Assembly (NCBI GenBank): GCA_963789055.1
Contig: CAWBJE010000001.1
Span: 77,215-141,214, forward strand
Length of the DNA stretch: 64,000 bases
Source of the DNA: an uncultured Verrucomicrobiae bacterium
Lineage (GTDB): Bacteria > Verrucomicrobiota > Verrucomicrobiia > Limisphaerales > UBA11358
Direction: 5' to 3'
The position numbers were made by a program, and so were the translations under genes. Within the stretch, counting starts at the first letter, position 1. Each line of letters starts with the position of its first letter. A model generated the notes under the pieces. It was given only the letters and a program-made list of their open reading frames with translations. It searched no databases and was not told the origin of the DNA. Shown here piece by piece: positions 3,083 to 18,021 of the stretch.

Positions 3083-5353
<2,271 letters not shown>

Positions 5354-6989: not shown

Positions 6990-9900
6990 TTATTCCTCGC
7001 CGCCGTTGTTGCCGTTTTTGCGTTCCCAGCGGCGCGGCGCGCGTTCGGGCAGGCTGGTGTCCACCTTCGCGTAATAGGTTTCCTCGCCGAACCGCGCGTC
7101 GGCCTCCTGCTGCAATTCCAGCGACGGCGTGACGCTGAACCGTTCGTTGGTGTCCATGAAAACAACCTCGCCGCCGGGCCGCATGAAACACAGCAACAAC
7201 GGGCATTTGCCCGGATGCGCGGCGACCAGTTCGCGCACGGATTCCAGTTGCTCCGGTTTCAGATGCGCCGTGTGCAGGCGCAGATGGACCTGTTTGGTGA
7301 ATTTTTTCGGCGCGTCCTCCAGCGGCATGATTTCCTGCGGAAAAATCTTCGGGCTTGTCGTCGCCGGTGTTGACTTCGCCGATGACGAGAATGGCCTTGT
7401 TCGGCGTCGAGCAGCTCGCGGTATTTGTCGTAGTTCTCGTTCATGCACGAGCACCTGCACCGAGCCTTCCAGGTCTTCGAGCGTGACCATCGAATACGGC
7501 TTGCCGCTCTTCTTCGACACGCCGTTCTGCACCGCCGCAATCAAGCCGCCGATGCGCGTCAGGCTGCGGTTCGGCAATTCGGCCAGCTTCGCGGTGTTGG
7601 CCAGCGCGTATTTTTCCAGGATCGGCGCGAACGGCGTCAGCGGATGGCCGGTGACATAAAATCCGAGCAACTCCTTTTCGTGCGCGAGCAATTCGTGCTG
7701 CGGCCATTCGGGCAGGTTGCTGATGGCTTCCGGCATCGGCGGCGCTTTTTCCTCCAGCGCGCCGAACAGCGAGCTTTGCCCCTTCTGCCGGTCGGAGAGG
7801 ATGCTGGCCGCGCGCGCCAGCGTGCGCTCAATTTGCGCGAACAGCGTCGCGCGCGTCTGGCCGAAGGCAATCGCACGCGCCGGATTTGATGAGCGCTTCC
7901 AGAATTTTCCGGTTCACCGTGCGGCCGTCCACGCGCTCGCACAGATCCGACAAGCGACTTGAATTTCCCGCCTTCGTTCGCGCGCCTTCAGAATGGTTTC
8001 CACCGCGACTTCGCCCACGCCTTTGATGGCCGCCAGGCCGAAGCGGATGCGCCTTCTGCCGATGCGCGGGCCTGCCCGCTTGCGCCGGCGCAAAATACAC
8101 CTGGCTTTCGTTCACGTCCGGCGGCAGCACTTCGATGCCGAATTCGCGCGCCTCGTCGATGTATTGGCTCAGCTTGGCGGTGTCCGCCATGTCGTTGGTC
8201 ATCATGGCGCAGAAAAATTCGACCGGATAATTCGCCTTCAGATACGCGGTCTGATACGCGACGATGGCGTAGGCGGCGGCGTGCGATTTGTTGAAGCCGT
8301 AGCCGGCGAATTTTTCCAGCAAATCGAAAATCTGGTTCGCCTTGGCGGCGGGGATCTTGTTCTTCTCGGCGCAGCCCTTGACGAAGATCTCGCGCTGCTT
8401 GGCCATTTCCTCGACTTTTTTCTTGCCCATCGCGCGCCGCAGCAAATCCGCGCGCGCCGAGCGTGAAGCCGGCCAGCACCTGCGCCGCCTGCATCACCTG
8501 CTCCTGGTAAATCAGGATGCCGTAGGTCTCGCGCGCAATCGGCTCCAGCAGCGGATGCTCGTATTCGATCTTCACTTCGCCGTGGCGGCGCTTGATGAAT
8601 TCCGGAATCAGCTCCATCGGCCCGGGCCGGTACAGCGCCACCAGCGCCGTGATGTGCTCGACGGAACTGATCTGAAACTTCCGGCACAAATCGCGCATCC
8701 CGCCGGATTCCAACTGGAACACGCCCAGCGTTTCCGCCTTGTTCAGCAGGTCGTAGGTCTTCTGGTCGTCGAGCGGCAGATGGTCAATCGGCACTTCGAT
8801 GCCGTGGGTGCGCTTGACCATCTCGCAGGTGTTGCGGATGACGGTCAGCGTCTTCAGCCCGAGAAAATCCATCTTCAGCAGGCCGAGGTCGCCGACCGGA
8901 TTCATCGCGTATTGCGTGACCAGCGTGCCGCTGTCGTCCTGCTTGAGCGGCAGCAGATTCACCAGCGGCTGGTCGCCGATGACCACGCCGGCGGCGTGCA
9001 CGGAGGCGTTGCGCGTGATGTCTTCGAGGATGAGCGCGGTGTCAATCAACTCGCGCGTGACTTCCTCGGTCTCGTAAGCCTCCTTGAATTCCGGCGATTG
9101 CTTGAGCGCCTTCTTCAAGCGTCATCTTCAGATCGAACGGAATCATCTTGGCCAGCCGGTCGCACTCGCCGTAGCTCAAGCCCATCACCCGGCCCACGTC
9201 GCGCACCACCGATTTCGCGCCCATCGTGCCGAACGTGATGATTTGCGCCACGGAATCGCGTCCGTATTTTTCGCGGACGTATTCGATGACGTCCGCGCGC
9301 CGGTCGTCGGCGAAATCAATGTCAATGTCCGGCGGATTGACGCGTTCGGGATTGAGGAACCGCTCGAACAGCAGGCCGTAGCGGATGGGATCCACGTTGG
9401 CGATCTCCAGCAGATAGGTGACGAGCGAACCGGCGGCGGAGCCGCGCGCCACGCACGCAATGCCGTGCTCGTGGCCGTAGCGGATGAAATCGCCGACGAT
9501 GAGGAAGTAGCTGATGAATCCGGTCTTCTCGATGACCGTGAGCTCCAGCTTCAGCCGGTCGAGCAAGACTTTGACGGCCGCGGCAACGGCAGGGTCTTTC
9601 AGTGTAGGACAGGCATCTTGCCTGTCTCTGGCTTCTTTTTGAGATGGAGACAGGCTGGAAGCCTGTCCTACGGCATACGTCGGCAAGCCGCGTCGGGTCG
9701 TCGATGCCTTCGACGACGAATTCCTTGCCTTCGGCTTTGGCGTGAATCGTGTAGCGCCGGAGCAATCCTTCCGCGAGCAGTTTGCGCAGATAACCTTCGC
9801 GCGTGAAATGTTCCGGCGGAGGGAAGACCGGGTAATGCAGCTTGCCGAATTCAATCTCCAGATTGCATTTCTCGGCCACTTCCAGCGTGTTTTTCACCGC

Positions 9901-10694
9901 CTCGGGCGTGTCGGCAAAGCGCGCCTTCATTTCCTCCGCCGTGCGCAGATAAAACTGCTCCGGCTCGTAGCGCATCCGTTTGGTGTCGGCCAGTTGCGTC
10001 TGCGTGCCGATGCAAATCAGGCAATCGTGCGCGTGGGAGTGGTTTTTCTCGATGTAATGGACGTCGTTCGTCGCGACGAGTTTCAGGCCGAAATCCTTTG
10101 CCCAGGCGATCAAGTTGCTGGTTGACCTTCGCCTGTTCGGCGATGCCGTGGTTTTGCAGTTCGAGATAAAAATTCTCCGCGCCGAGCGTCTGTTTGAACC
10201 AGTCAATCGCCTCGCGCGCCTTGTCGCAACTGGTCCTTCGTAATCACTTCGGGAATTTCGCTGGCCAGACAGCCGGACAGGGCGATCAGGCCGTCCTTGT
10301 GCGTGGCCAGCAGTTCCTTGTCGATGCGCGGCTTGTAGTAATAGCCCTCGAGGTGCGCGGCGGTGGCGAGTTGGATGAGATTTTTGTAGCCGGTCGCGTC
10401 TTTGGCCAGCAGACCGAGGTGATGGTAAACGTCGCGGCCGCCGCTGCTGGTTTTCTTCTCCAGCCGGCTGCCGGGCGCGACATAAACCTCGCAGCCGATG
10501 ATGGGTTTGATGCCCTTTTCGCGCGCCGCCTGGTAAAAATCAATCGCGCCGTGCATGGCGCCGTGGTCGGTGATGGCCAGCGCGGGGAATTTCAGTTCAT
10601 GCGCCTTGTCCACCAGCCGGTCCAGCCGGCAGGCGCCATCGAGCAGCGAATACTCGGTGTGCAAATGGAGATGAACAAAGTCCGCGTGCGACAT
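6990..10694 (-). pseudogene. dnaE: DNA polymerase III alpha subunit; frame broken about 10 times as assembled and carrying a palindromic insert
   Basis: PHP N-terminus [21 protein letters not shown] (10694 downward). Later blocks: [101 protein letters not shown]. These are spread over minus ORFs 10203-10694, 9322-10206, 9042-9854, 7988-9118, 7828-8445 and 6990-7736 plus short third-frame stretches. Confidence 0.9.
9605..9672. repeat. 68-nt compound palindromic element inside dnaE
   Basis: GTAGGACAGGCATCTTGCCTGTCTC ... GAGACAGGCTGGAAGCCTGTCCTAC. The 25-nt arms are inverted copies except for their 5-nt loops. Each arm is itself a GACAGGC-N5-GCCTGTC hairpin. Confidence 0.75.
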
Positions 10695-10746
10695 GGGGAC
10701 AGTTTAACTTCCAACCACCAAGACACCAAGACACAAAGTTTTGGAA
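10564..10746 (-). repeat. Native copy of the triplicated dnaE 5' segment (first 133 nt of CDS plus 50 nt of upstream leader/promoter)
   Basis: 10564-10696 matches 11347-11479. 10607-10746 matches 12109-12248. See findings. Confidence 0.85.
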
Positions 10747-10792
10747 AAATTAACGAGGCTTGCGACGCAACCGCTTTCGGGCGGCATGGATT

Positions 10793-11056
10793 TTATAAAT
10801 CGCGAAGCAGCCGTTCGTATTTATCATGCGGCCCGATCCAGAACCAAAGGTAGCGGTCATCTGCGAATGTTGCCAGGGCGCGATAGCCGGAACCGGCGCG
10901 CACCGACCAAAGGTCGGATTTGATTTTCTTGAAGCCGAGGGATTTCAGCGAAGGATTTGTCTGCCAGAGCTTGAAGTTCTTGCGCGCAATTTTTTGAACC
11001 GGCGTCGGCAGGGCTTCGAGGCAGTCCCAAAATTCCGGCAGCGCGGAAGATTTCAC
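10793..11056 (-). CDS. RelE/ParE-superfamily toxin-like protein (TA pair 1)
   Basis: 87 aa. The C-terminal pattern LWSVRAGSGYRALATFADDRYLWFWIGPHDKYERLL is typical of RelE/ParE-fold toxins. A 4-nt ATGA overlap couples it to the upstream small gene. Confidence 0.55.
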   Translation of the reverse strand: MKSSALPEFWDCLEALPTPVQKIARKNFKLWQTNPSLKSLGFKKIKSDLWSVRAGSGYRALATFADDRYLWFWIGPHDKYERLLRDL

Positions 11057-11256
11057 GGAAAAGGCGTGGCCTTGCCCGCGCGATAACCCGCCCTGGCTTT
11101 GGCAATCACTTTATCCAGCCGGCCGGCCTTGGCGTCGGCATCAATCTGCTGGTCCCAAACCCCCTCGCGCAGTTCCTGCAGCCAGTCGGCGACTTCATGG
11201 ATTTCCTGCGGCTTCAGCTTTTGGATGGCCATTTCGATTTCTTGCACCGTGCTCAT
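11053..11256 (-). CDS. Putative antitoxin of TA pair 1
   Basis: 67 aa, helical and acidic. It sits immediately upstream of the toxin-like gene and overlaps it. Confidence 0.5.
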   Translation of the reverse strand: MSTVQEIEMAIQKLKPQEIHEVADWLQELREGVWDQQIDADAKAGRLDKVIAKARAGYRAGKATPFP

Positions 11257-11346
11257 GGCACAAATTTAATCCAGTCCCCGCCGCCGTGCAACGGGCTTTT
11301 CGCCGCGCACGGTTCCATGGCTGGTCAGGTGTTGCGGATGTTAATC

Positions 11347-11479
11347 TGGTCGGTGATGGCGAGCGCGAGGAATTTCAGTTCATGCGCCTTGTCCACCAGC
11401 CGGTCCAGACGGCAGGCGCCATCGAGCAGTGAATACTCGGTGTGCAAATGAAGATGAACAAAGTCCGCATGTGGCATGG
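11347..11479 (-). repeat. Second copy of the dnaE 5' coding end (codons 1-44), without the dnaE upstream leader
   Basis: 125/133 nt identical to 10564-10696 (hand count). Encodes [43 protein letters not shown], then diverges (track ORF 11325-11534). Confidence 0.85.
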
Positions 11480-11537
11480 CCCCACGTTCCCCACCGACAC
11501 CGACTCCACGCAAGAAAGGGATGTGCATAAGCAAATA

Positions 11538-11840
11538 TCAATCCAACGACAGCAAATCCGGTTCACGTTGCGCACCGTGCCAATAGCGTAGAATGTCAAC
11601 AAAGTTATCCTGCTCCCGAAATCGGTAGAAAACGATGTAAGGCGGTGAAACCAGCTTGCGCACGCCGGGGCGTTTGGGATACGGCACACCAAGCAGGGGA
11701 AATTTTTCGAGGATGGCCACCCGGCCAATCAAGGCATTGCCGACACGCAAGGCGGCATCGGGGTTTTCCCTGGCAATGAAACGAACCGCAGCCTCCAAAT
11801 CTGCCAGGGCCTGGGGTGAAAAGATTATTTTGCAGCCCAT
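11538..11840 (-). CDS. parE: ParE-family toxin (TA pair 2)
   Basis: 100 aa. FSPQALADLEAAVRFIARENPDAALRVGNALIGRVAILEKFPLLG ... IVFYRFREQDNFVDILRYWHGAQ is the classic plasmid-stabilisation ParE layout. Confidence 0.8.
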   Translation of the reverse strand: MGCKIIFSPQALADLEAAVRFIARENPDAALRVGNALIGRVAILEKFPLLGVPYPKRPGVRKLVSPPYIVFYRFREQDNFVDILRYWHGAQREPDLLSLD

Positions 11841-12049
11841 GAAGCCACCCGTTTGCGAACATCATTTATCGGCACGCCCTTGCCGGCATCAATGTCTCCG
11901 ACGGCTTCATCCAGCGAGCGCAGCAGGCGGCGTTCTTCCTGGGCAGTCAATTCCGGCTCGATTTGGGAATTGAGCCAAAGCTGCAGGGCTTTCCGCTCGC
12001 TGCCCGGCAACCGGGCAACGGCGTCTTGAATCTCAACCAGTGTGCTCAT
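11825..12049 (-). CDS. Addiction-module antitoxin component (TIGR02574-like), TA pair 2
   Basis: 74 aa. LVEIQDAVARLPGSERKALQLWL ... EAVGDIDAGKGVPINDVRKRV. Overlaps the parE start by 16 nt. Confidence 0.65.
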   Translation of the reverse strand: MSTLVEIQDAVARLPGSERKALQLWLNSQIEPELTAQEERRLLRSLDEAVGDIDAGKGVPINDVRKRVASWAAK

Positions 12050-12108
12050 GGCAGAGGAAAATTAACGCGCCATTCCTGTTTTGGCAAACGGCAATTCCCG
12101 GAGGGGCC

Positions 12109-12248
12109 TGTCCACCAGCCGGTCCAGCCGGCAGGCGCCATCGAGCAATGAATACTCGGTGTGCAAATGCAGATGAACAAAGCCCGCGTGTGGCATGGAG
12201 ACAGTTTAACTTTGAACCACCAGGACACCAAGACACAAAGTTTTGGAA
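12109..12248 (-). repeat. Third copy of the dnaE 5' region (50-nt upstream leader plus codons 1-30)
   Basis: 130/140 nt identical to 10607-10746 (hand count). It opens a 44-codon chimeric ORF (12062-12196: [29 protein letters not shown] plus 14 unrelated codons) that stops 12 nt before the antitoxin-2 ATG. Confidence 0.85.
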
Positions 12249-12373
12249 TGGATCACCACAAATTTTGACGGTAAAACCAGTGGAGGGAGAAAAAGGAAGC
12301 CGACATGACTCGGCGCCGACCGTGGCCAAACTTCAATGGCCATTTTTCACCGCAGAGGCGCAAAGGCGCGGAG

Positions 12374-13006
12374 TTATGGATGTAGCCGGATGTAGGCGTT
12401 GACCTGTTTCTCGATCTCGTATTTCTGCATGTCGTAATCATTCGGCCATTCACTGGCGGCCTTCGCCTTGATCTGATAAAATGTTTCCGTCGGGACGCCT
12501 TCGGCGCCGACTGCCTTGATGAGCCAGTTGTACGCTTCGGTCTGTTTATTGATCTCGTAAACCTGCATGTCGTAATCACCAGGCCATTCTTTTTGAGCCT
12601 TGGCTCGAATGGTTTCTGCAACATTGTCAACTTCATGCTTTGCGGCTGTTTGATGCGCCAGTATTTCTTGCGCTGCCTCCGCAACGTCTCGCGCGATGGC
12701 CATTTGTTTCTCCCGTTCGGCAATCTTCTTATCGTTCTCCATCTGGTCGGCCTTATTCGCCTCGTCGGGATCGTAATTAAACTTCGCCTGCAAATCTGGC
12801 GGCAATTTCTCCAGCCGGATTGTTCCCGCCACCAAACCACCATTCGCGCGGTAAATGAGTTTGTTCGGTGCAACACTGACCACCTCGGCGTTGGTGACGT
12901 AAAAACCAACTGAGTTCGTGAAACTGACGATAATGGGGGCAGAATTAGTGTTTGTCTGAGCCGAGGTGAGACAAACCGAAGCCAGAAGGCAGAAGATGGC
13001 TTTCAT
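12374..13006 (-). CDS. Secreted hypothetical protein with an internal repeat
   Basis: Signal-peptide-like MKAIFCLLASVCLTSAQT. Duplicated unit I(R/K)AKA..EWP(G/N)DYDMQ.YEI.KQ..AY. Visibly lower GC than its surroundings. Confidence 0.55.
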   Translation of the reverse strand: MKAIFCLLASVCLTSAQTNTNSAPIIVSFTNSVGFYVTNAEVVSVAPNKLIYRANGGLVAGTIRLEKLPPDLQAKFNYDPDEANKADQMENDKKIAEREKQMAIARDVAEAAQEILAHQTAAKHEVDNVAETIRAKAQKEWPGDYDMQVYEINKQTEAYNWLIKAVGAEGVPTETFYQIKAKAASEWPNDYDMQKYEIEKQVNAYIRLHP

Positions 13007-13016
13007 GATTAACCTT

Positions 13017-13223
13017 TCATATCGCTGATGACTCTATGGAATCGTTTGGTTTGTGTTTGCAGGTCATCCGCTGTGCACTCCAATTTACCAACTGTTTTTT
13101 TACCGTTTCCCAATCCATGAATGTTTCGGTACCCGATCTGATTTTCGCCTCACGGTCGCGCAACACGTCTTCATGCCATGCCGGCGATTCCAATTGCGCG
13201 TCGTTGCGGCTTTCCGATTTCAT
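13017..13223 (-). CDS. Orphan addiction-module-component-like small protein
   Basis: 68 aa. SPAWHEDVLRDREAKIRSGTETFMDWETVKKQL resembles TIGR02574-type antitoxins. No toxin gene follows it. Its start overlaps the degT-like stop as ATGA. Confidence 0.45.
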   Translation of the reverse strand: MKSESRNDAQLESPAWHEDVLRDREAKIRSGTETFMDWETVKKQLVNWSAQRMTCKHKPNDSIESSAI

Positions 13224-14406: not shown

Positions 14407-15935
14407 TGTCAAAACTCTTTAGAAATGTCCCCTGGTTAACTCACGAGAGAATGTCCCCTTTGTTGGTTGTTGTTCCTTGCACTCTTTCCCCGGCTGGGGT
14501 TGCGGGACGCAGGGAGGCCGGAGCGTAGCGGAGGCCGACCGGAGGCCCGCAACCCCAGCCGCTCCGCCCGCCTGCTCGCCTTGACCCCACGCCAATACTT
14601 CCGCCCCACACCCATCCCAAACTGCCGCCACAGATGATTCGCCGCCGGCGGCAGTGCCTCGCGCCGGACCTTCACCAGCTTGGCTTTCACTCGCCGGGGC
14701 CGCCCGGGCAGAGGGCGCCACTTCAGTTTCCCGCCCCGATACACCAACTGCACCCGCCCATCCCGCAGCGTCCGCACGATCACCTTGCGCCGCACCAGAC
14801 TCAACGCCTCATGTTGCCGGTCCAGTTGATACCACTGCCCCGCACAAGCCACCGTCCAGTCGCCTTGCACCACCCGCTCCTCCTCCCAGCTCAACACTTC
14901 GTCCAACTCCCGGGGCACCGCCCGATGCACGTCGGTGGAACTGGCCGCCTCCACGTTGAACTTCCGGTTGAACGCCGACAGATATGTCTCCGCCAGAAAG
15001 CCGTTGGCGCTTTCCAGATCGCTGATCCCCGCCAGGCGCATTGCTTTGACCAGCCGGTCCTGGAGCACGCCGTTCATCCGTTCCACCCGCCCTTTGGCTT
15101 GCGGGCTGTTGGCCAGAATCAGTTCCACCGCCAGTGTTTCCATCGCCCGCCCAAACTGCGTTTGCGGTTCCTGGCCCGCCAGTTGTTCGGCCACGCTGCC
15201 CAACCCTTCGCACCGGTAAATGCTGTCCCGATCCACATACAGACTGGCGGGCAATCCGTGGCGGCGCACCCAACCCGCGAACACGTCATAGCTGGCACGC
15301 GTCGTCTCTTCCTCGAAAAACTGCGCCCACAACCGCCCCGTCGCATCGTCCACCATCACCATCAGCACGCACTTGGCCCGCCGCCCTTCGAACCAGTCGT
15401 GGTGCGAACCATCCAGTTGCACCATCGCTCCCAGGCACGGCTTGCGCTCCCGCCACTGCCGATGCTTTTGCCGCCGCCGGCGCACCGGGTGCTTGCCCTC
15501 CGCCAGCCGCCAGCGCCGCAACGTCTCGTGATCCACCACCAGTCCTTCCTTCGCCAGTTGCTCGGCCATCAGCGTCGGGCCGAAGTCGGCGTAACGTTCC
15601 TCGGCATAGCGCGCCAGCGCCACCGCTCGCAGTTGGGGCGGCTTGCGCCGCGCGCTGGGTTGACCGCGCAGCCGATGCACCAAGCCCGCGTCGCCCTCGT
15701 CCTGATAGCGTCGCCAGACCCGCTTGCTCTGGCGGTAACACACTCCCATCAGTTCGCCCGCCTGCACCAGCGTCAGTTCCTGCCGCTTTACGCCCGTCAT
15801 GATCGTCAGCCGATCCCGTTCCTTCCGACTCATTGTTAATGTCTCCATGTTGTGGCCGGGGTTGCTACCGCAACCCCGGCCAAAAGGGGACATTCTTATC
15901 GAGTTATCATGGGGACATTCTCATGGAGTTCCGAC
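14407..15935 (-). mobile_element. Complete IS element, ISNCY/IS1202-group-like, flanked by a 16-bp direct repeat
   Basis: An identical ATTCAAAATGCTCGTG sits at 14391-14406 and 15936-15951. Imperfect terminal inverted repeats (about 40 nt) each carry two AATGTCCCC boxes. One rve-type transposase ORF lies inside. Confidence 0.85.
14436..15848 (-). CDS. DDE (rve) transposase with an N-terminal HTH
   Basis: METLTMSRKERDRLTIMTGVKRQELTLVQAGELMGVCYRQSKRVWRRYQDEGDAGLVHRLRGQPS ... MVQLDGSHHDWF ... VDRDSIY ... SPQAKGRVERMNG. Intact. Track ORF is 14436-15893. Confidence 0.85.
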   Translation of the reverse strand: METLTMSRKERDRLTIMTGVKRQELTLVQAGELMGVCYRQSKRVWRRYQDEGDAGLVHRLRGQPSARRKPPQLRAVALARYAEERYADFGPTLMAEQLAKEGLVVDHETLRRWRLAEGKHPVRRRRQKHRQWRERKPCLGAMVQLDGSHHDWFEGRRAKCVLMVMVDDATGRLWAQFFEEETTRASYDVFAGWVRRHGLPASLYVDRDSIYRCEGLGSVAEQLAGQEPQTQFGRAMETLAVELILANSPQAKGRVERMNGVLQDRLVKAMRLAGISDLESANGFLAETYLSAFNRKFNVEAASSTDVHRAVPRELDEVLSWEEERVVQGDWTVACAGQWYQLDRQHEALSLVRRKVIVRTLRDGRVQLVYRGGKLKWRPLPGRPRRVKAKLVKVRREALPPAANHLWRQFGMGVGRKYWRGVKASRRAERLGLRASGRPPLRSGLPASRNPSRGKSARNNNQQRGHSLVS

Positions 15936-16045: not shown

Positions 16046-17877
16046 TCAACCTTGGAACTGGAGTTCGTAGAGTTTCTGGTAAACGCCCCCGCGCCGGACC
16101 AAGTCCGCATGTTTGCCCGTTTCAACAATCCGGCCCTGGTCCAGCACCACAATCATGTCCGCGTGCAGAATGGTTGAGAGCCGGTGCGCGATGCAAATCG
16201 TCGTGCGGCCCTTCATCAATTCGTCGAGCGCGAATTGCACGGCGCGTTCGGATTCGGTGTCGAGCGCGCTGGTGGCCTCGTCCAGAATCAGAATCGGCGC
16301 ATTCTTCAAAACCGCGCGGGCGATGGCGAGGCGCTGGCGCTGGCCGCCGGAAAGCGAAACGCCTTTTTCGCCGATGACGGCGTCGAAGCCTTCCGGTTTT
16401 TGCATGATGAAATTCGTGGGCGTAGGCGTGTTTGGCGGCGGCGACGATTTCCTCGTTCGTCGCGCCGAGGCGGCCCAGCTCGATGTTCCGGCGGACGGTG
16501 TCGTTGAACAGGATGTTTTCCTGCGCGACGACGGCGATTTGATTCCGCAGGTCGCGCGTGGAAACATCGCGCAAATCCACGCCGCCGATTTTGATCGTGC
16601 CACGCACGGGGTCGTAAAAACGCAGGAGCAAATTGGCCAGCGTGGTTTTGCCGGAGCCACTGGCGCCAACGAGTGCGACGAGTTGGCCGGCTTTGACGGT
16701 GAGGTTGATATTGTGCAGGACCGGTTTTTCGCCGTAATTGAAATCGAGGTCTTCAAACACGATGTCAGCTTGGTCCGCATGAAGCATTTTGGGCGCGACC
16801 GGTTCGGGCACGGAATTTTTCAGGGCGAGCAGCTCAAAGACGCGTTCGCTGGCGGCGCGGGCCTGGTGCAAGCTGGTTATGCAGCCGCGTGAACGCCTTG
16901 ACGGGCGGATAAATCATCACAACGGCGAGGATAAACATGAAAAAATCCGACGCCTTGGGCCGCTGGTCGGCCGGCAGGTTCTGCACATAAAAGAAAACCA
17001 GCGCGATCCCCGCAGCCCCGAATAATTCCATGAGCTGGCTGGGAATTTCGTTGGCGCGGATGACGCGCATGAGCTGGCTGACGTATTTTTTGGTCGTGGC
17101 CTTGAATTGTTCTACGACGGTTGCTTCCAGGTTGTAGGCTTTGATGACGCGGCTGCCGGTAAAGGATTCGTGCATGAGATTGGTCAGCTCGGCGTTGTAC
17201 TCCTGAACCGCGCGGGCGGATTTGCGAACCTTGCGTCCATAAATGATGATCGGCACGATGCACACGGGGAAAACCACGATGGACACCAGCGTTAACGTGG
17301 GCTGGAGGATCAGCAGGACGACGAGCGTGCAAAGGATGGTAACCGGGTCTTTGACAGCGGAGGCAAATGAACCGCCGATGATGTTGTAAAGCACCTGGGT
17401 GTCATTGGTGATGCGCGCAATCAAATCGCCGGTGCTGGCGCGGTTGAAAAATCCGAGCGAAAGATTTTGCAGGTGACCGAACAGTTTTGTGCGAATATCG
17501 GCGATGGCGTGCATGGCCGACCAGTTCGTCAGATAAACACTCAAGTAGGACAACGTGTTGCGGAGCAGCACGATGGCGGGAATGGCGCCCGCCACCAGCG
17601 CCCAGCCCAGTTGCGAGGTGGGGGCGGGCAATTCCGGCGTCGCCGAGACCAGCCGGTCCGTGAAGGGATGAATCCAGTGCGGTGTCTTCGCCAGATGTTT
17701 GGCGAGCTGTTCGTGGATATTGGTCGAGCCGGTGAAAATCAGGTCCATAACCACCTTGGCGGCACCCAGCAGCGCGCCATTGGTCAGGGCGTACAGAATG
17801 CCACAGACCAGTCCCAGAAAAAACCGCAGCCGATAAGGCCGGACAAACGTCCAAAGTTTGCGGAGGAACGCAATCAT
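16046..17877 (-). pseudogene. msbA: ABC transporter, fused permease/ATPase, MsbA-like; 2 frame breaks as assembled
   Basis: Transmembrane domain in 16834-17877. Walker [10 protein letters not shown] in 16122-16871. Signature [14 protein letters not shown] and Walker [13 protein letters not shown] in 16046-16780. Confidence 0.8.
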
Positions 17878-18021
17878 TGAGGCGGAAATTGTGTCGGTTT
17901 GCCGCGCCCGACGCGAGAACTATTCCCGCGCCTCTGGCGGAAAAATCCTTTTGACAAAAGCTTGTCAGACCCGCGACCAACCGGGAAAATTTGCGCCAAA
18001 ACCGACCAACGCCCGAAAAGC

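Follow-up and report, generated by a model that had tools for sequence, protein, structure and literature searches.

How does the start of an essential replication gene come to stand three times in a row, with a toxin-antitoxin (TA) pair in each of the two gaps? The question is raised by a 64,000-nt stretch of DNA from an uncultured Verrucomicrobiae bacterium (the window), in which the 5' end of dnaE occurs as three copies, designated c1, c2 and c3 outwards from the gene, all on the minus strand, with one co-oriented TA pair in each gap (Table 1). Based on comparison with relatives, we consider it probable that this is a tandem double "insertion with long target duplication", with a type II TA cassette as cargo and homologous combined with illegitimate recombination as the route.

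Comparison of the window with itself gave 125 of 133 identical positions between c1 (10564-10696) and c2, and 130 of 140 between c1 (10607-10746) and c3. Both counts had been made in a first-pass annotation of this DNA and were reproduced on recount, as was its placement of one TA pair in each gap, with ORFs where it had put them. The dnaE start codon, previously placed at 10696, is corrected here to 10694, which gives a 52-nt leader and repeats whose coding portions span 131 and 88 nt. The copies recur at periods of 719 and 783 nt, each gap contains just the two TA genes, and a search across the whole window found no comparable repeat family elsewhere. The 44-codon ORF that c3 had been said to create is present at 12062-12196, with its stop 12 nt ahead of the TA2 antitoxin ATG, and the upstream flank of c3 is colinear with the related locus L005 out to 12275. 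No terminator-like site was found between the cassettes and dnaE, a promoter scan of 10400-12500 returned zero sites at the scan's threshold, and Rfam and tRNA scans detected no relevant RNA feature and no tRNA gene.

The gene at the end of this array had been described as intact; the assembly contains about nine frameshifts in it. When the intact DnaE of L006 (1268 aa) was used in tblastn, residues 1-1268 were all matched, spread over three frames. A decaying pseudogene was considered and rejected, given that the in-frame segments are mostly 81-94% identical to the protein of relatives (two segments spanning frameshifts score below this range) and that another gene is frameshifted too.

Table 1. 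Features of the dnaE 5' region, in window coordinates (TA1, inner cassette; TA2, outer cassette; J2 and J3, inner and outer junctions).
Feature	Position	Strand	Evidence or remark
dnaE (DNA polymerase III alpha)	6993..10694	-	PHP domain, E 1.6e-50; single full-length copy
c1: P-type leader (10695-10746) and dnaE codons 1-44, running into the gene	10564..10746	-	
Spacer, TA1 toxin stop to P-type leader	10747..10792	-	colinear with L084 (41/46) and L188 (42/46)
TA1 toxin, 87 aa	10793..11056	-	PF24732 ParE_like, E 1.4e-4, below curated cut-off
TA1 antitoxin, 67 aa	11053..11256	-	ORF; 4-nt overlap with toxin gene
TA1 cassette left end, conserved upstream region with AAAAGCCCGTTGC	11257..11318	-	homology to relatives
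J2 filler, 28 nt	11319..11346	-	unique in window
c2: orphan dnaE codons 1-44, ATG at 11477, carries P37L	11347..11479	-	125/133 to c1
l2, second leader type	11480..11537	-	homologous to other dnaE leaders
TA2 toxin, 100 aa	11538..11840	-	PF05016 ParE_toxin, E 4.2e-16; TIGR02385, E 3e-8
TA2 antitoxin, 74 aa	11825..12049	-	ORF; 16-nt overlap with toxin gene
TA2 cassette left end (12050-12099) and J3 filler (12100-12108)	12050..12108	-	
c3: P-type leader and orphan dnaE codons 1-30, ATG at 12196	12109..12248	-	130/140 to c1
Terminator-like hairpin	12298..12321	-	after upstream 210-aa ORF, directly before c3 leader

The two cassettes belong to different TA families. The TA1 toxin scored 22.2 bits against PF24732, for which the curated cut-off is 24.4; its homologs (n = 137) are mostly 87 aa long, and PF24732 is on record for several of them. 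The 67-aa gene upstream of the TA1 toxin gene is conserved in L084-L087 and L188, where the two-gene layout is kept. The TA2 toxin scored 59.7 bits against PF05016 (cut-off 23), which places it in the type II ParE/RelE superfamily, and its antitoxin is 81% identical to an L006 protein and 88% identical to L168 at the nucleotide level. Neither antitoxin had a Pfam or NCBIfam match at E up to 0.01, and the TIGR02574-like assignment made earlier for that of TA2 is not confirmed. PF09720, the Pfam model considered with TIGR02574 for this antitoxin, matches a separate ORF at 13017-13223 instead. In a cluster look-up the window's own TA toxins were located on one 766,943-nt contig only.

Pfam scans of the ORFs from 278 to 22667 of the window detected no integrase within about 10 kb, in agreement with the first-pass annotation; the sole mobility-like ORF in the scanned range is IS-like (14436-15893). 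No integrase lies inside any of the cassettes, although an enzyme acting in trans could be encoded outside these 64 kb. Inverted repeats spanned the cassette at none of the 69 TA1-family loci compared; judged by this and by the missing nearby integrase, the cassettes are not of the integron type.

The stretch upstream of dnaE is variable across this Verrucomicrobiae clade and is, depending on the lineage, empty or occupied by TA1, TA2 or a DUF433/DUF5615 pair. Two native dnaE leader types exist in the clade, and one or the other stands behind the cassettes. In the empty sites L001, L005, L010 and L011, the P-type leader and dnaE occur once, with no cassette. A single dnaE start was counted in 83 of 83 loci (L001-L083, in stored flanks reaching 6 kb if the contig was long enough). 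The first-pass annotation had suggested surveying relatives for TA genes and orphan dnaE fragments 5' of dnaE, and both do occur there: in a Pfam survey covering 74 relatives, most of the 149 ORFs located upstream of dnaE were housekeeping genes, with TA genes recurrent but not the rule. The metagenome-assembled locus L052 carries repeats 35/36 identical and 670 nt apart around the unrelated DUF433/DUF5615 pair before dnaE, and its 36-nt orphan start retains the native leader; it is an independent second case at dnaE. Of about 85 dnaE loci surveyed at species level, two had an orphan (the window and L052), and with the L168 group described below the independent lineages number three, which makes events at dnaE rare.

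The outer unit (c3-TA2-c2) has counterparts in several relatives. Positions 12099..11347 match L006 5377..6131 with 83% identity over 755 nt, the homology starting at 12099, and l2 has homologs in the dnaE leaders of L003, L004, L008 and L009 (all without TA2) and of L006 and L168 (both with it). The entire stretch from orphan through junction, TA2 and l2 to dnaE is colinear with L168, J3 included, with the same 6-nt spacing. The orphan is present in L168-L176, with an orphan-like match in L177. These loci, drawn from 17 contigs reported for a single toxin sequence, are JGI and ENA k141 short-read assemblies from several metagenome samples, and the outer junction was reproduced in at least nine of the fetched independent contigs. 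The outer unit is thus not an assembly artefact. Nor did it arise in the window genome, since contigs from many other samples share the junction; its distribution indicates an old, inherited structure. One comparison speaks against our main explanation: c3 is 93% identical to c1, but its identity to the orthologous L168 orphan is just 79.5%, so that gene conversion or repeated exchange is needed, and either must be postulated.

The inner unit (TA1-c1) resembles a different set of relatives. Positions 11318..9048 match L084 with 89.7% identity over 2274 nt, L188 is 94-97% identical over both TA1 genes, and the first 131 coding nt of c1 share 95% identity with L084 and 92% with L188. Both relatives have the order TA1-leader-dnaE, with the orphan absent. 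The homology of the TA1 left end begins at 11318 for L084 and L188 and at 11307 for L087, and the AAAAGCCCGTTGC motif it contains also lies at the cassette edge at the PNP-site loci described below. The inner junction was seen on the window contig only, which is error-prone. Within its filler, positions 11326-11340 equal dnaE internal positions 8826-8840 (same strand, about +1.85 kb), and a 15-mer match of this kind was reached by none of 300 shuffles. This remnant indicates that the inner orphan formerly measured at least 1.87 kb and has since eroded to 44 codons; the incoming piece thus need not have been small.

The repeat copies differ in a way that points to their source. Between c1 and c2 there are five synonymous and two non-synonymous codon differences, and between c1 and c3 three and two, which bears out the mostly synonymous pattern noted earlier. 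The Met-Pro-His start of both extra copies was likewise confirmed and is a natural variant among relatives. Differences between repeat copies fell at first, second and third codon positions in 28, 18 and 63 of 109 cases, a bias that excludes pure in-place decay only under our own rough rate assumptions. Furthermore, c2 has a leader type different from that of c1 and c3, and each type is found alone in TA-less relatives. Based on the different native leaders and the third-position bias, the copies appear to derive from different functional alleles rather than from copying in place, in support of the earlier proposal that each orphan represents the 5' end of another functional dnaE allele. Sliding identity against 11 relatives, including L084 and L001, showed no break, and crossover points were not located.

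Similar repeats occur at other genes. Of 69 TA1-family loci, 17 are flanked by imperfect direct repeats with a length of 30 nt or more (30-222 nt), 12 of them by repeats of at least 70 nt, while reversed and inverted controls gave repeats at 0 of 69. The repeats are the start or stop region of a neighbouring gene, and the targets include starts or stops of PNP_UDP_1, Aminotran_1_2, BE_C and Hexapep genes. At the PNP-site loci the orphan ends vary and the cassette edge is constant. Relatives of TA2 at galK are flanked by 86-90-nt repeats with 89% identity. None of 80 JGI metagenome loci with TA1 relatives adjoins dnaE, so TA1 is not dnaE-specific. The idea of dnaE as a special target is accordingly not upheld, the same cassette families being repeat-flanked at the ends of PNP, aminotransferase, branching-enzyme, hexapeptide-transferase and galK genes.

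Given these observations, we propose that DNA carrying the arrangement of one lineage met a chromosome with another arrangement. Homologous recombination within the strongly conserved 5' part of dnaE, together with one illegitimate joint, would then place the incoming block (cassette, leader and dnaE start) before the gene and leave the resident leader and start orphaned upstream; the route could be homology-facilitated illegitimate recombination, or a Campbell-type integration in which the fragment had first been circularised. The TA1 unit, with the present leader and start, would have been added later, into the then-functional dnaE copy. Because dnaE is essential, only products restoring the whole gene should survive, and because the cassettes are presumably addictive, deletions cutting into them would be lost, so that orphans would erode only as far as the upstream control region of the cassette. 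By way of the flanking repeats, a cassette that lacks a recombinase could also be excised as a loop and inserted again wherever a genome has the target gene. Of the original proposal, the insertion-duplication layout holds, in that a leader and a dnaE 5' segment came in with each TA block, the previous start being left as an orphan; dedicated small TA elements with an att site do not, since the blocks are the ordinary chromosomal arrangement in relatives (TA2-leader-dnaE in L006 and L168, TA1-leader-dnaE in L084 and L188). Retrotransposition of a TA-dnaE transcript was also considered and rejected, because the upstream control region of the cassette moves with it and the copies stem from other lineages.

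An in-place origin of the kind envisaged for restriction-modification units, in which some other insertion mechanism makes widely staggered cuts that are filled in, and initially identical copies then diverge or undergo gene conversion, would account for the two near-identical repeat pairs (35/36 in L052 and 85/87 in L150), for cassette edges that are identical at different targets and for the L168 orphan, which by our own count lacks codon-position bias past its first 41 nt. We nevertheless regard it as unlikely, since in the window and in L168 the copies have different native leaders, each colinear with a different relative, the leader behind TA1 (P1) is a chromosomal dnaE leader rather than a copy of the target in c2, and the differences concentrate at third positions, with few at second positions. 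The contig itself invites a technical reading, namely that a long-read assembler or a chimeric read joined TA2 and TA1 strain variants serially: it is rich in indels (the dnaE frameshifts and two more in an ABC transporter gene), it is the only one to contain the inner junction, and both single-cassette arrangements are known elsewhere as separate haplotypes. Against this stand the short-read contigs that reproduce the outer junction, inner-junction partners that share no overlap by which an assembler might have joined them, a 28-nt filler whose templated dnaE 15-mer resembles real illegitimate joints and eroded duplications, and the same architecture in L052 and 17 other TA1 loci; an artefact is therefore highly improbable.

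Integration into the 5' end of a gene with supply of a new 5' end is known from SXT/R391 at prfC and from dusA-specific islands, where, as here, the original start is displaced and the incoming leader and first codons keep the gene functional. By analogy, circular TA cassettes with an attP could be miniature islands inserted by a tyrosine or serine recombinase encoded elsewhere, with a core in the first codons of dnaE and of the other targets, and codons 1-11 do lie in the duplicated segment of all three dnaE-site events. However, those islands carry an integrase gene and recombine at a short, fixed core, whereas here an integrase is missing within about 10 kb and in every cassette, the junctions vary (orphan ends at +34, about +93 and +133) and the blocks are allelic stretches of chromosome that relatives have as their normal arrangement. 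Inverted repeats flank the cassette at none of the 69 loci. The pattern is common to three TA families unrelated to each other and to at least six unrelated target genes. With variable junctions, and no conserved core visible at those inspected by eye, the site-specific route is unsupported, and we rate it very unlikely.

Recombination of dnaE alleles around TA cassettes, the reading that we prefer, has its closest parallel among restriction-modification units, for which "insertion with long target duplication" is documented (Nobusato et al. 2000, Gene 259:99; Furuta et al. 2010, PMC2853133; Mruk & Kobayashi 2013, PMC3874152). The criteria for it are a complete unit, an insert of <20 kb with no mobility gene, a repeat of >30 bp, an empty site and near-identical copies (PMC2853133). 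In the window both genes of TA1 and both of TA2 lie between repeat copies, the inserts correspond to the two sub-kilobase periods and have no mobility gene, the repeats span 133 and 140 nt (36 nt in L052 and 30-222 nt at the 17 TA1 loci), and empty sites exist in the four relatives named above. The copies, at 93-94% identity with different leaders and mainly third-position differences, are not near-identical, and the window case is therefore classed as a variant. The two systems share a compact addictive unit with no mobility gene, direct target repeats of >30 bp and variable length, repeats that often span the start or stop codon so that the target gene stays whole, and empty sites in relatives. 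They differ in that the cargo here is a type II TA pair, that two units are stacked and that the repeats are 84-98% identical and represent different alleles, in contrast to the near-identical known ones; the double-strand-break idea proposed for restriction enzymes is not obviously applicable to TA pairs. TA islets with no mobility genes also occupy small variable spots between core genes and spread by host homologous recombination (PMC13617665), but these involve a double crossover in both flanks and no duplication, whereas here one flank is duplicated.

With regard to the route, insertion-duplication and homology-facilitated illegitimate recombination have reportedly been obtained in naturally transformable bacteria (de Vries & Wackernagel 2002; Prudhomme et al. 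2002). Events of this type, such as the single crossover of a circular fragment, likewise combine one homologous exchange with one illegitimate joint and leave a partial gene duplication around foreign DNA; those are laboratory observations, while the present cases are natural, recurrent and TA-linked at conserved gene ends. In the literature searched, no description was found of TA cassettes with long target duplications, nor of a natural and recurrent outcome of this kind linked to TA pairs at conserved gene ends.

Long repeats of neighbouring gene ends thus flank about one in four of the loci sampled from one TA family, and they occur in two other families as well; their sequence pattern points to two different alleles, by which the vague idea of spread by recombination becomes testable. 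Long target duplication, a phenomenon described since 2000, is extended past restriction-modification systems, and the start of an essential replication gene can, it seems, be replaced repeatedly. How chromosomal TA modules spread with no mobility genes has long been asked. A tentative proposal, to which we give somewhat less than even weight, is that TA pairs act as recombinase-less mobile elements, using the end of a conserved host gene as homology arm for insertion by host RecA beside that gene in related genomes and the resulting repeats for looping out and re-entry, and protected by post-segregational killing and by the essentiality of targets such as dnaE. If true, the mobility of chromosomal TA modules would thereby be explained in general terms.

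Three copies of the dnaE start lie in the window, a repetition that is real and far beyond chance. The first-pass annotation had reported identities of 125/133 (10564-10696 against 11347-11479) and 130/140 (10607-10746 against 12109-12248), and both were reproduced; a search of the 64-kb window found nothing comparable to this dnaE-start family elsewhere. The same annotation had placed one co-oriented toxin-antitoxin (TA) pair between successive copies, and our ORFs agree, with a single two-gene unit per gap. Two details are revised: the dnaE ATG is at 10694 instead of 10696, and the outer antitoxin, described as TIGR02574-like, matches no Pfam or NCBIfam model, which also applies to the inner antitoxin. 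The TA2 toxin is a clear ParE_toxin (PF05016, E 4e-16), and TA1 encodes an 87-aa protein with a PF24732 ParE_like score just under the cut-off. No terminator-like sites were found between the cassettes and dnaE, no integrase genes within about 10 kb of the locus, and no tRNA genes in the 64-kb window.

Layout of the window dnaE locus in gene direction; c1 is the start of the full gene, and c2 and c3 are the inner and outer orphan (displaced partial) copies
Order	Feature	Position	Length	Strand	ATG
1	Upstream ORF and terminator-like hairpin	12298-12321 (hairpin)
2	c3: P-type leader and dnaE codons 1-30	12109-12248		minus	12196
3	Outer junction between c3 and TA2		9 nt
4	TA2 and its upstream sequence	11538-12049 (TA2)	50 nt (upstream sequence)
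5	c2: different leader (l2) and codons 1-44		58 nt (leader)	minus	11477
6	Inner junction between c2 and TA1		28 nt
7	TA1 and its upstream sequence	10793-11256 (TA1)	62 nt (upstream sequence)
8	Spacer between TA1 and the c1 leader		46 nt
9	c1: P-type leader continuous with dnaE	6993-10694 (dnaE)		minus	10694

Among the compared loci of relatives (MAGs and metagenome contigs, L001-L188), a single dnaE start was found in 83/83 dnaE loci (within the stored flanks, at most 6 kb and shorter where a contig ended), and sensitive self-comparison of 84 dnaE loci gave one exception with a repeated start, L052. DegT and dnaE lie between about 70 nt and 3.5 kb apart in syntenic relatives. TA-less relatives carry either the P-type leader (L001, L005, L010, L011) or the l2 type (L003, L004, L008, L009). 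TA genes 5' of dnaE and orphan dnaE fragments, for which a survey of related genomes had been suggested, were both present. In L006, TA2 immediately precedes an l2 leader and intact dnaE, and window 12099..11347 is colinear with this locus (83% over 755 nt). TA1, a P leader and dnaE follow one another in L084 and L188, neither of which has an orphan; colinearity with L084 (89.7%) extends over window 11318..9048, and both TA1 genes are 94-97% identical to those of L084/L188.

The complete outer structure, i.e., P leader, orphan codons 1 to about 33, junction, TA2 and l2 leader, recurs in L168-L176, followed by dnaE in L168-L175, while the L176 contig stops after the toxin gene. The outer junction is the same as in the window, including the 6-nt spacing before GGGAWTTGCCG, and L177 also has an orphan-like match. 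L168-L177 come from JGI and ENA short-read assemblies of several samples, with 17 contigs reported for that toxin sequence. This recurrence indicates that the outer unit (c3-TA2-c2) is inherited and widespread rather than artefactual, so that stacking of strain alleles by the assembler, an explanation raised beforehand, fails for this unit. L052, from a MEGAHIT MAG, is an independent case of a repeat-flanked TA pair at dnaE: repeats of 36 nt (35/36 identical, 670 nt apart, spanning dnaE -2 to +34) enclose a DUF433/DUF5615 pair co-oriented with dnaE, and its orphan keeps a native P-type leader with ATG changed to GTG.

Further elements were observed near dnaE. In L003 a DUF433/DUF5615 pair (7237-7892) lies immediately 5' of dnaE on the opposite strand, without an orphan. 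An antitoxin-like ORF without a toxin partner (window 13017-13223; PF09720, E 2.4e-8) is 80% identical to a fragment immediately 5' of dnaE in L010 (5754-5876); this is possibly one more leftover of cassettes coming and going at this position. A 210-aa ORF upstream (12374-13006), with an internal 83-nt repeat (12384-12466 and 12522-12604, 73% identical), had a homolog in no fetched relative. A 485-aa ORF with HTH_32/HTH_28 domains (14436-15893; G+C 0.64-0.69, strong negative GC skew) is probably an insertion sequence adjoining DegT.

The window is part of a single 766,943-nt contig (NCBI, ENA), and its relatives come from Verrucomicrobiae MAGs, of which many are long-read assemblies. Frameshifts interrupt dnaE (about nine) and an ABC transporter gene (16055-17880; two); DegT, the TA genes and the P-type ATPase are intact, and DnaE is unbroken (1268 aa) in relatives such as L006. 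These frameshifts look like unevenly spread indel errors of long-read assembly, not gene decay. A 68-nt palindrome (9604-9671; 25-nt arms, 88% complementary) sits in a dnaE linker where identity to all relatives is only 45-70%, with a frame switch just upstream, at about 9686. The inner junction, seen in this contig only, is probably real.

The architecture extends to other genes. Many relatives of the TA1 toxin occur in metagenome contigs of Verrucomicrobia type, where their gene contexts are diverse. Of the TA1-family loci, 69 have 100 nt or more of sequence on each side; among these, direct repeats across the cassette reach at least 30 nt in 17 and at least 70 nt in 12, and reversed and inverted controls gave 0/69. 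The upstream copy mostly stops 40-70 nt short of the antitoxin ATG, and the downstream copy usually begins no more than about 20 nt from the toxin stop. The repeated sequence is the end of a gene: the start of PNP_UDP_1 (L087, L120, L128, L132/L135, L157) or of an aminotransferase gene (L096), or the stop region of a branching-enzyme gene (L091) or a convergent hexapeptide transferase gene (L158). TA2 relatives at a further site, galK, are flanked by repeats of the 3' end of that gene (86-90 nt, 89% identical). With the DUF433/DUF5615 pair, three unrelated TA families thus share one architecture.

Simple in-place duplication followed by decay is an unlikely origin of the copies, as their differences mostly arose within working genes of separate lineages. 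The copies on either side of TA2 (window and L168) have different native leader types, and the leader following TA1 is an ordinary chromosomal dnaE leader. Differences sorted by codon position (1/2/3) were 1/1/6 for c1 against c2, 2/1/3 for c1 against c3, 12/4/25 for four PNP pairs summed, 1/3/6 for galK (L178), 4/3/9 for L091 and 8/6/14 for L159, in total 28/18/63 of 109. Judged from these patterns, the copies derive from different alleles, and most of the divergence appears to predate their joining, when both were parts of working genes; the proposal that the orphans are 5' ends of other functional dnaE alleles, not decayed in place, is supported.

The inner orphan was longer once. The inner junction holds a 15-mer identical to the dnaE interior about 1.85 kb in, on the same strand (no match as long in 300 shuffles), so the displaced copy once measured at least 1.87 kb. 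At the PNP-site loci the orphan end varies, and the cassette always starts with AAAAGCCCGTTGC; deletions would trim the orphan up to the sequence that the cassette needs. At the dnaE site the TA1 left end (window 11257-11318) has ATGGAACYGTGCGCGGCG before AAAAGCCCGTTGC and matches the PNP orphan end of L128 (about 3740-3770) at 13/18 positions; this left end is possibly left over from a time when the cassette sat at a PNP site. The L168 orphan (2144-2240) agrees with its own functional copy (2866-2962) at 40/41 positions at the 5' end, then at 40/56, which suggests gene conversion, repeated exchange or a crossover boundary inside the repeat.

Host recombination between variants of one locus is the best-supported reading, and we regard it as reasonably likely. 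Homologous exchange inside the conserved gene end would be combined with one illegitimate joint, through either Campbell-type integration of a circle or homology-facilitated illegitimate recombination of a linear fragment, and the products would be filtered by dnaE essentiality and TA addiction. Identity profiles against relatives revealed no detectable crossover point.

The locus agrees in most respects with 'insertion with long target duplication', in which an addictive unit that lacks mobility genes, with empty sites in relatives, lies between near-identical repeats of >30 bp, often across start or stop codons, by an unknown mechanism (PMC2853133, PMC3874152). That process was described for restriction-modification systems, whereas the cargo here is type II TA cassettes, for which our literature search, incomplete in coverage, found no description. 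For TA islets, a recent paper proposes spread through the flanking core genes by double crossover (PMC13617665), a route that leaves no duplication, in contrast to the window locus. The finding in the window is real and partly inherited, and the locus represents one instance of a broader process, little described so far, by which TA cassettes become established at gene ends.
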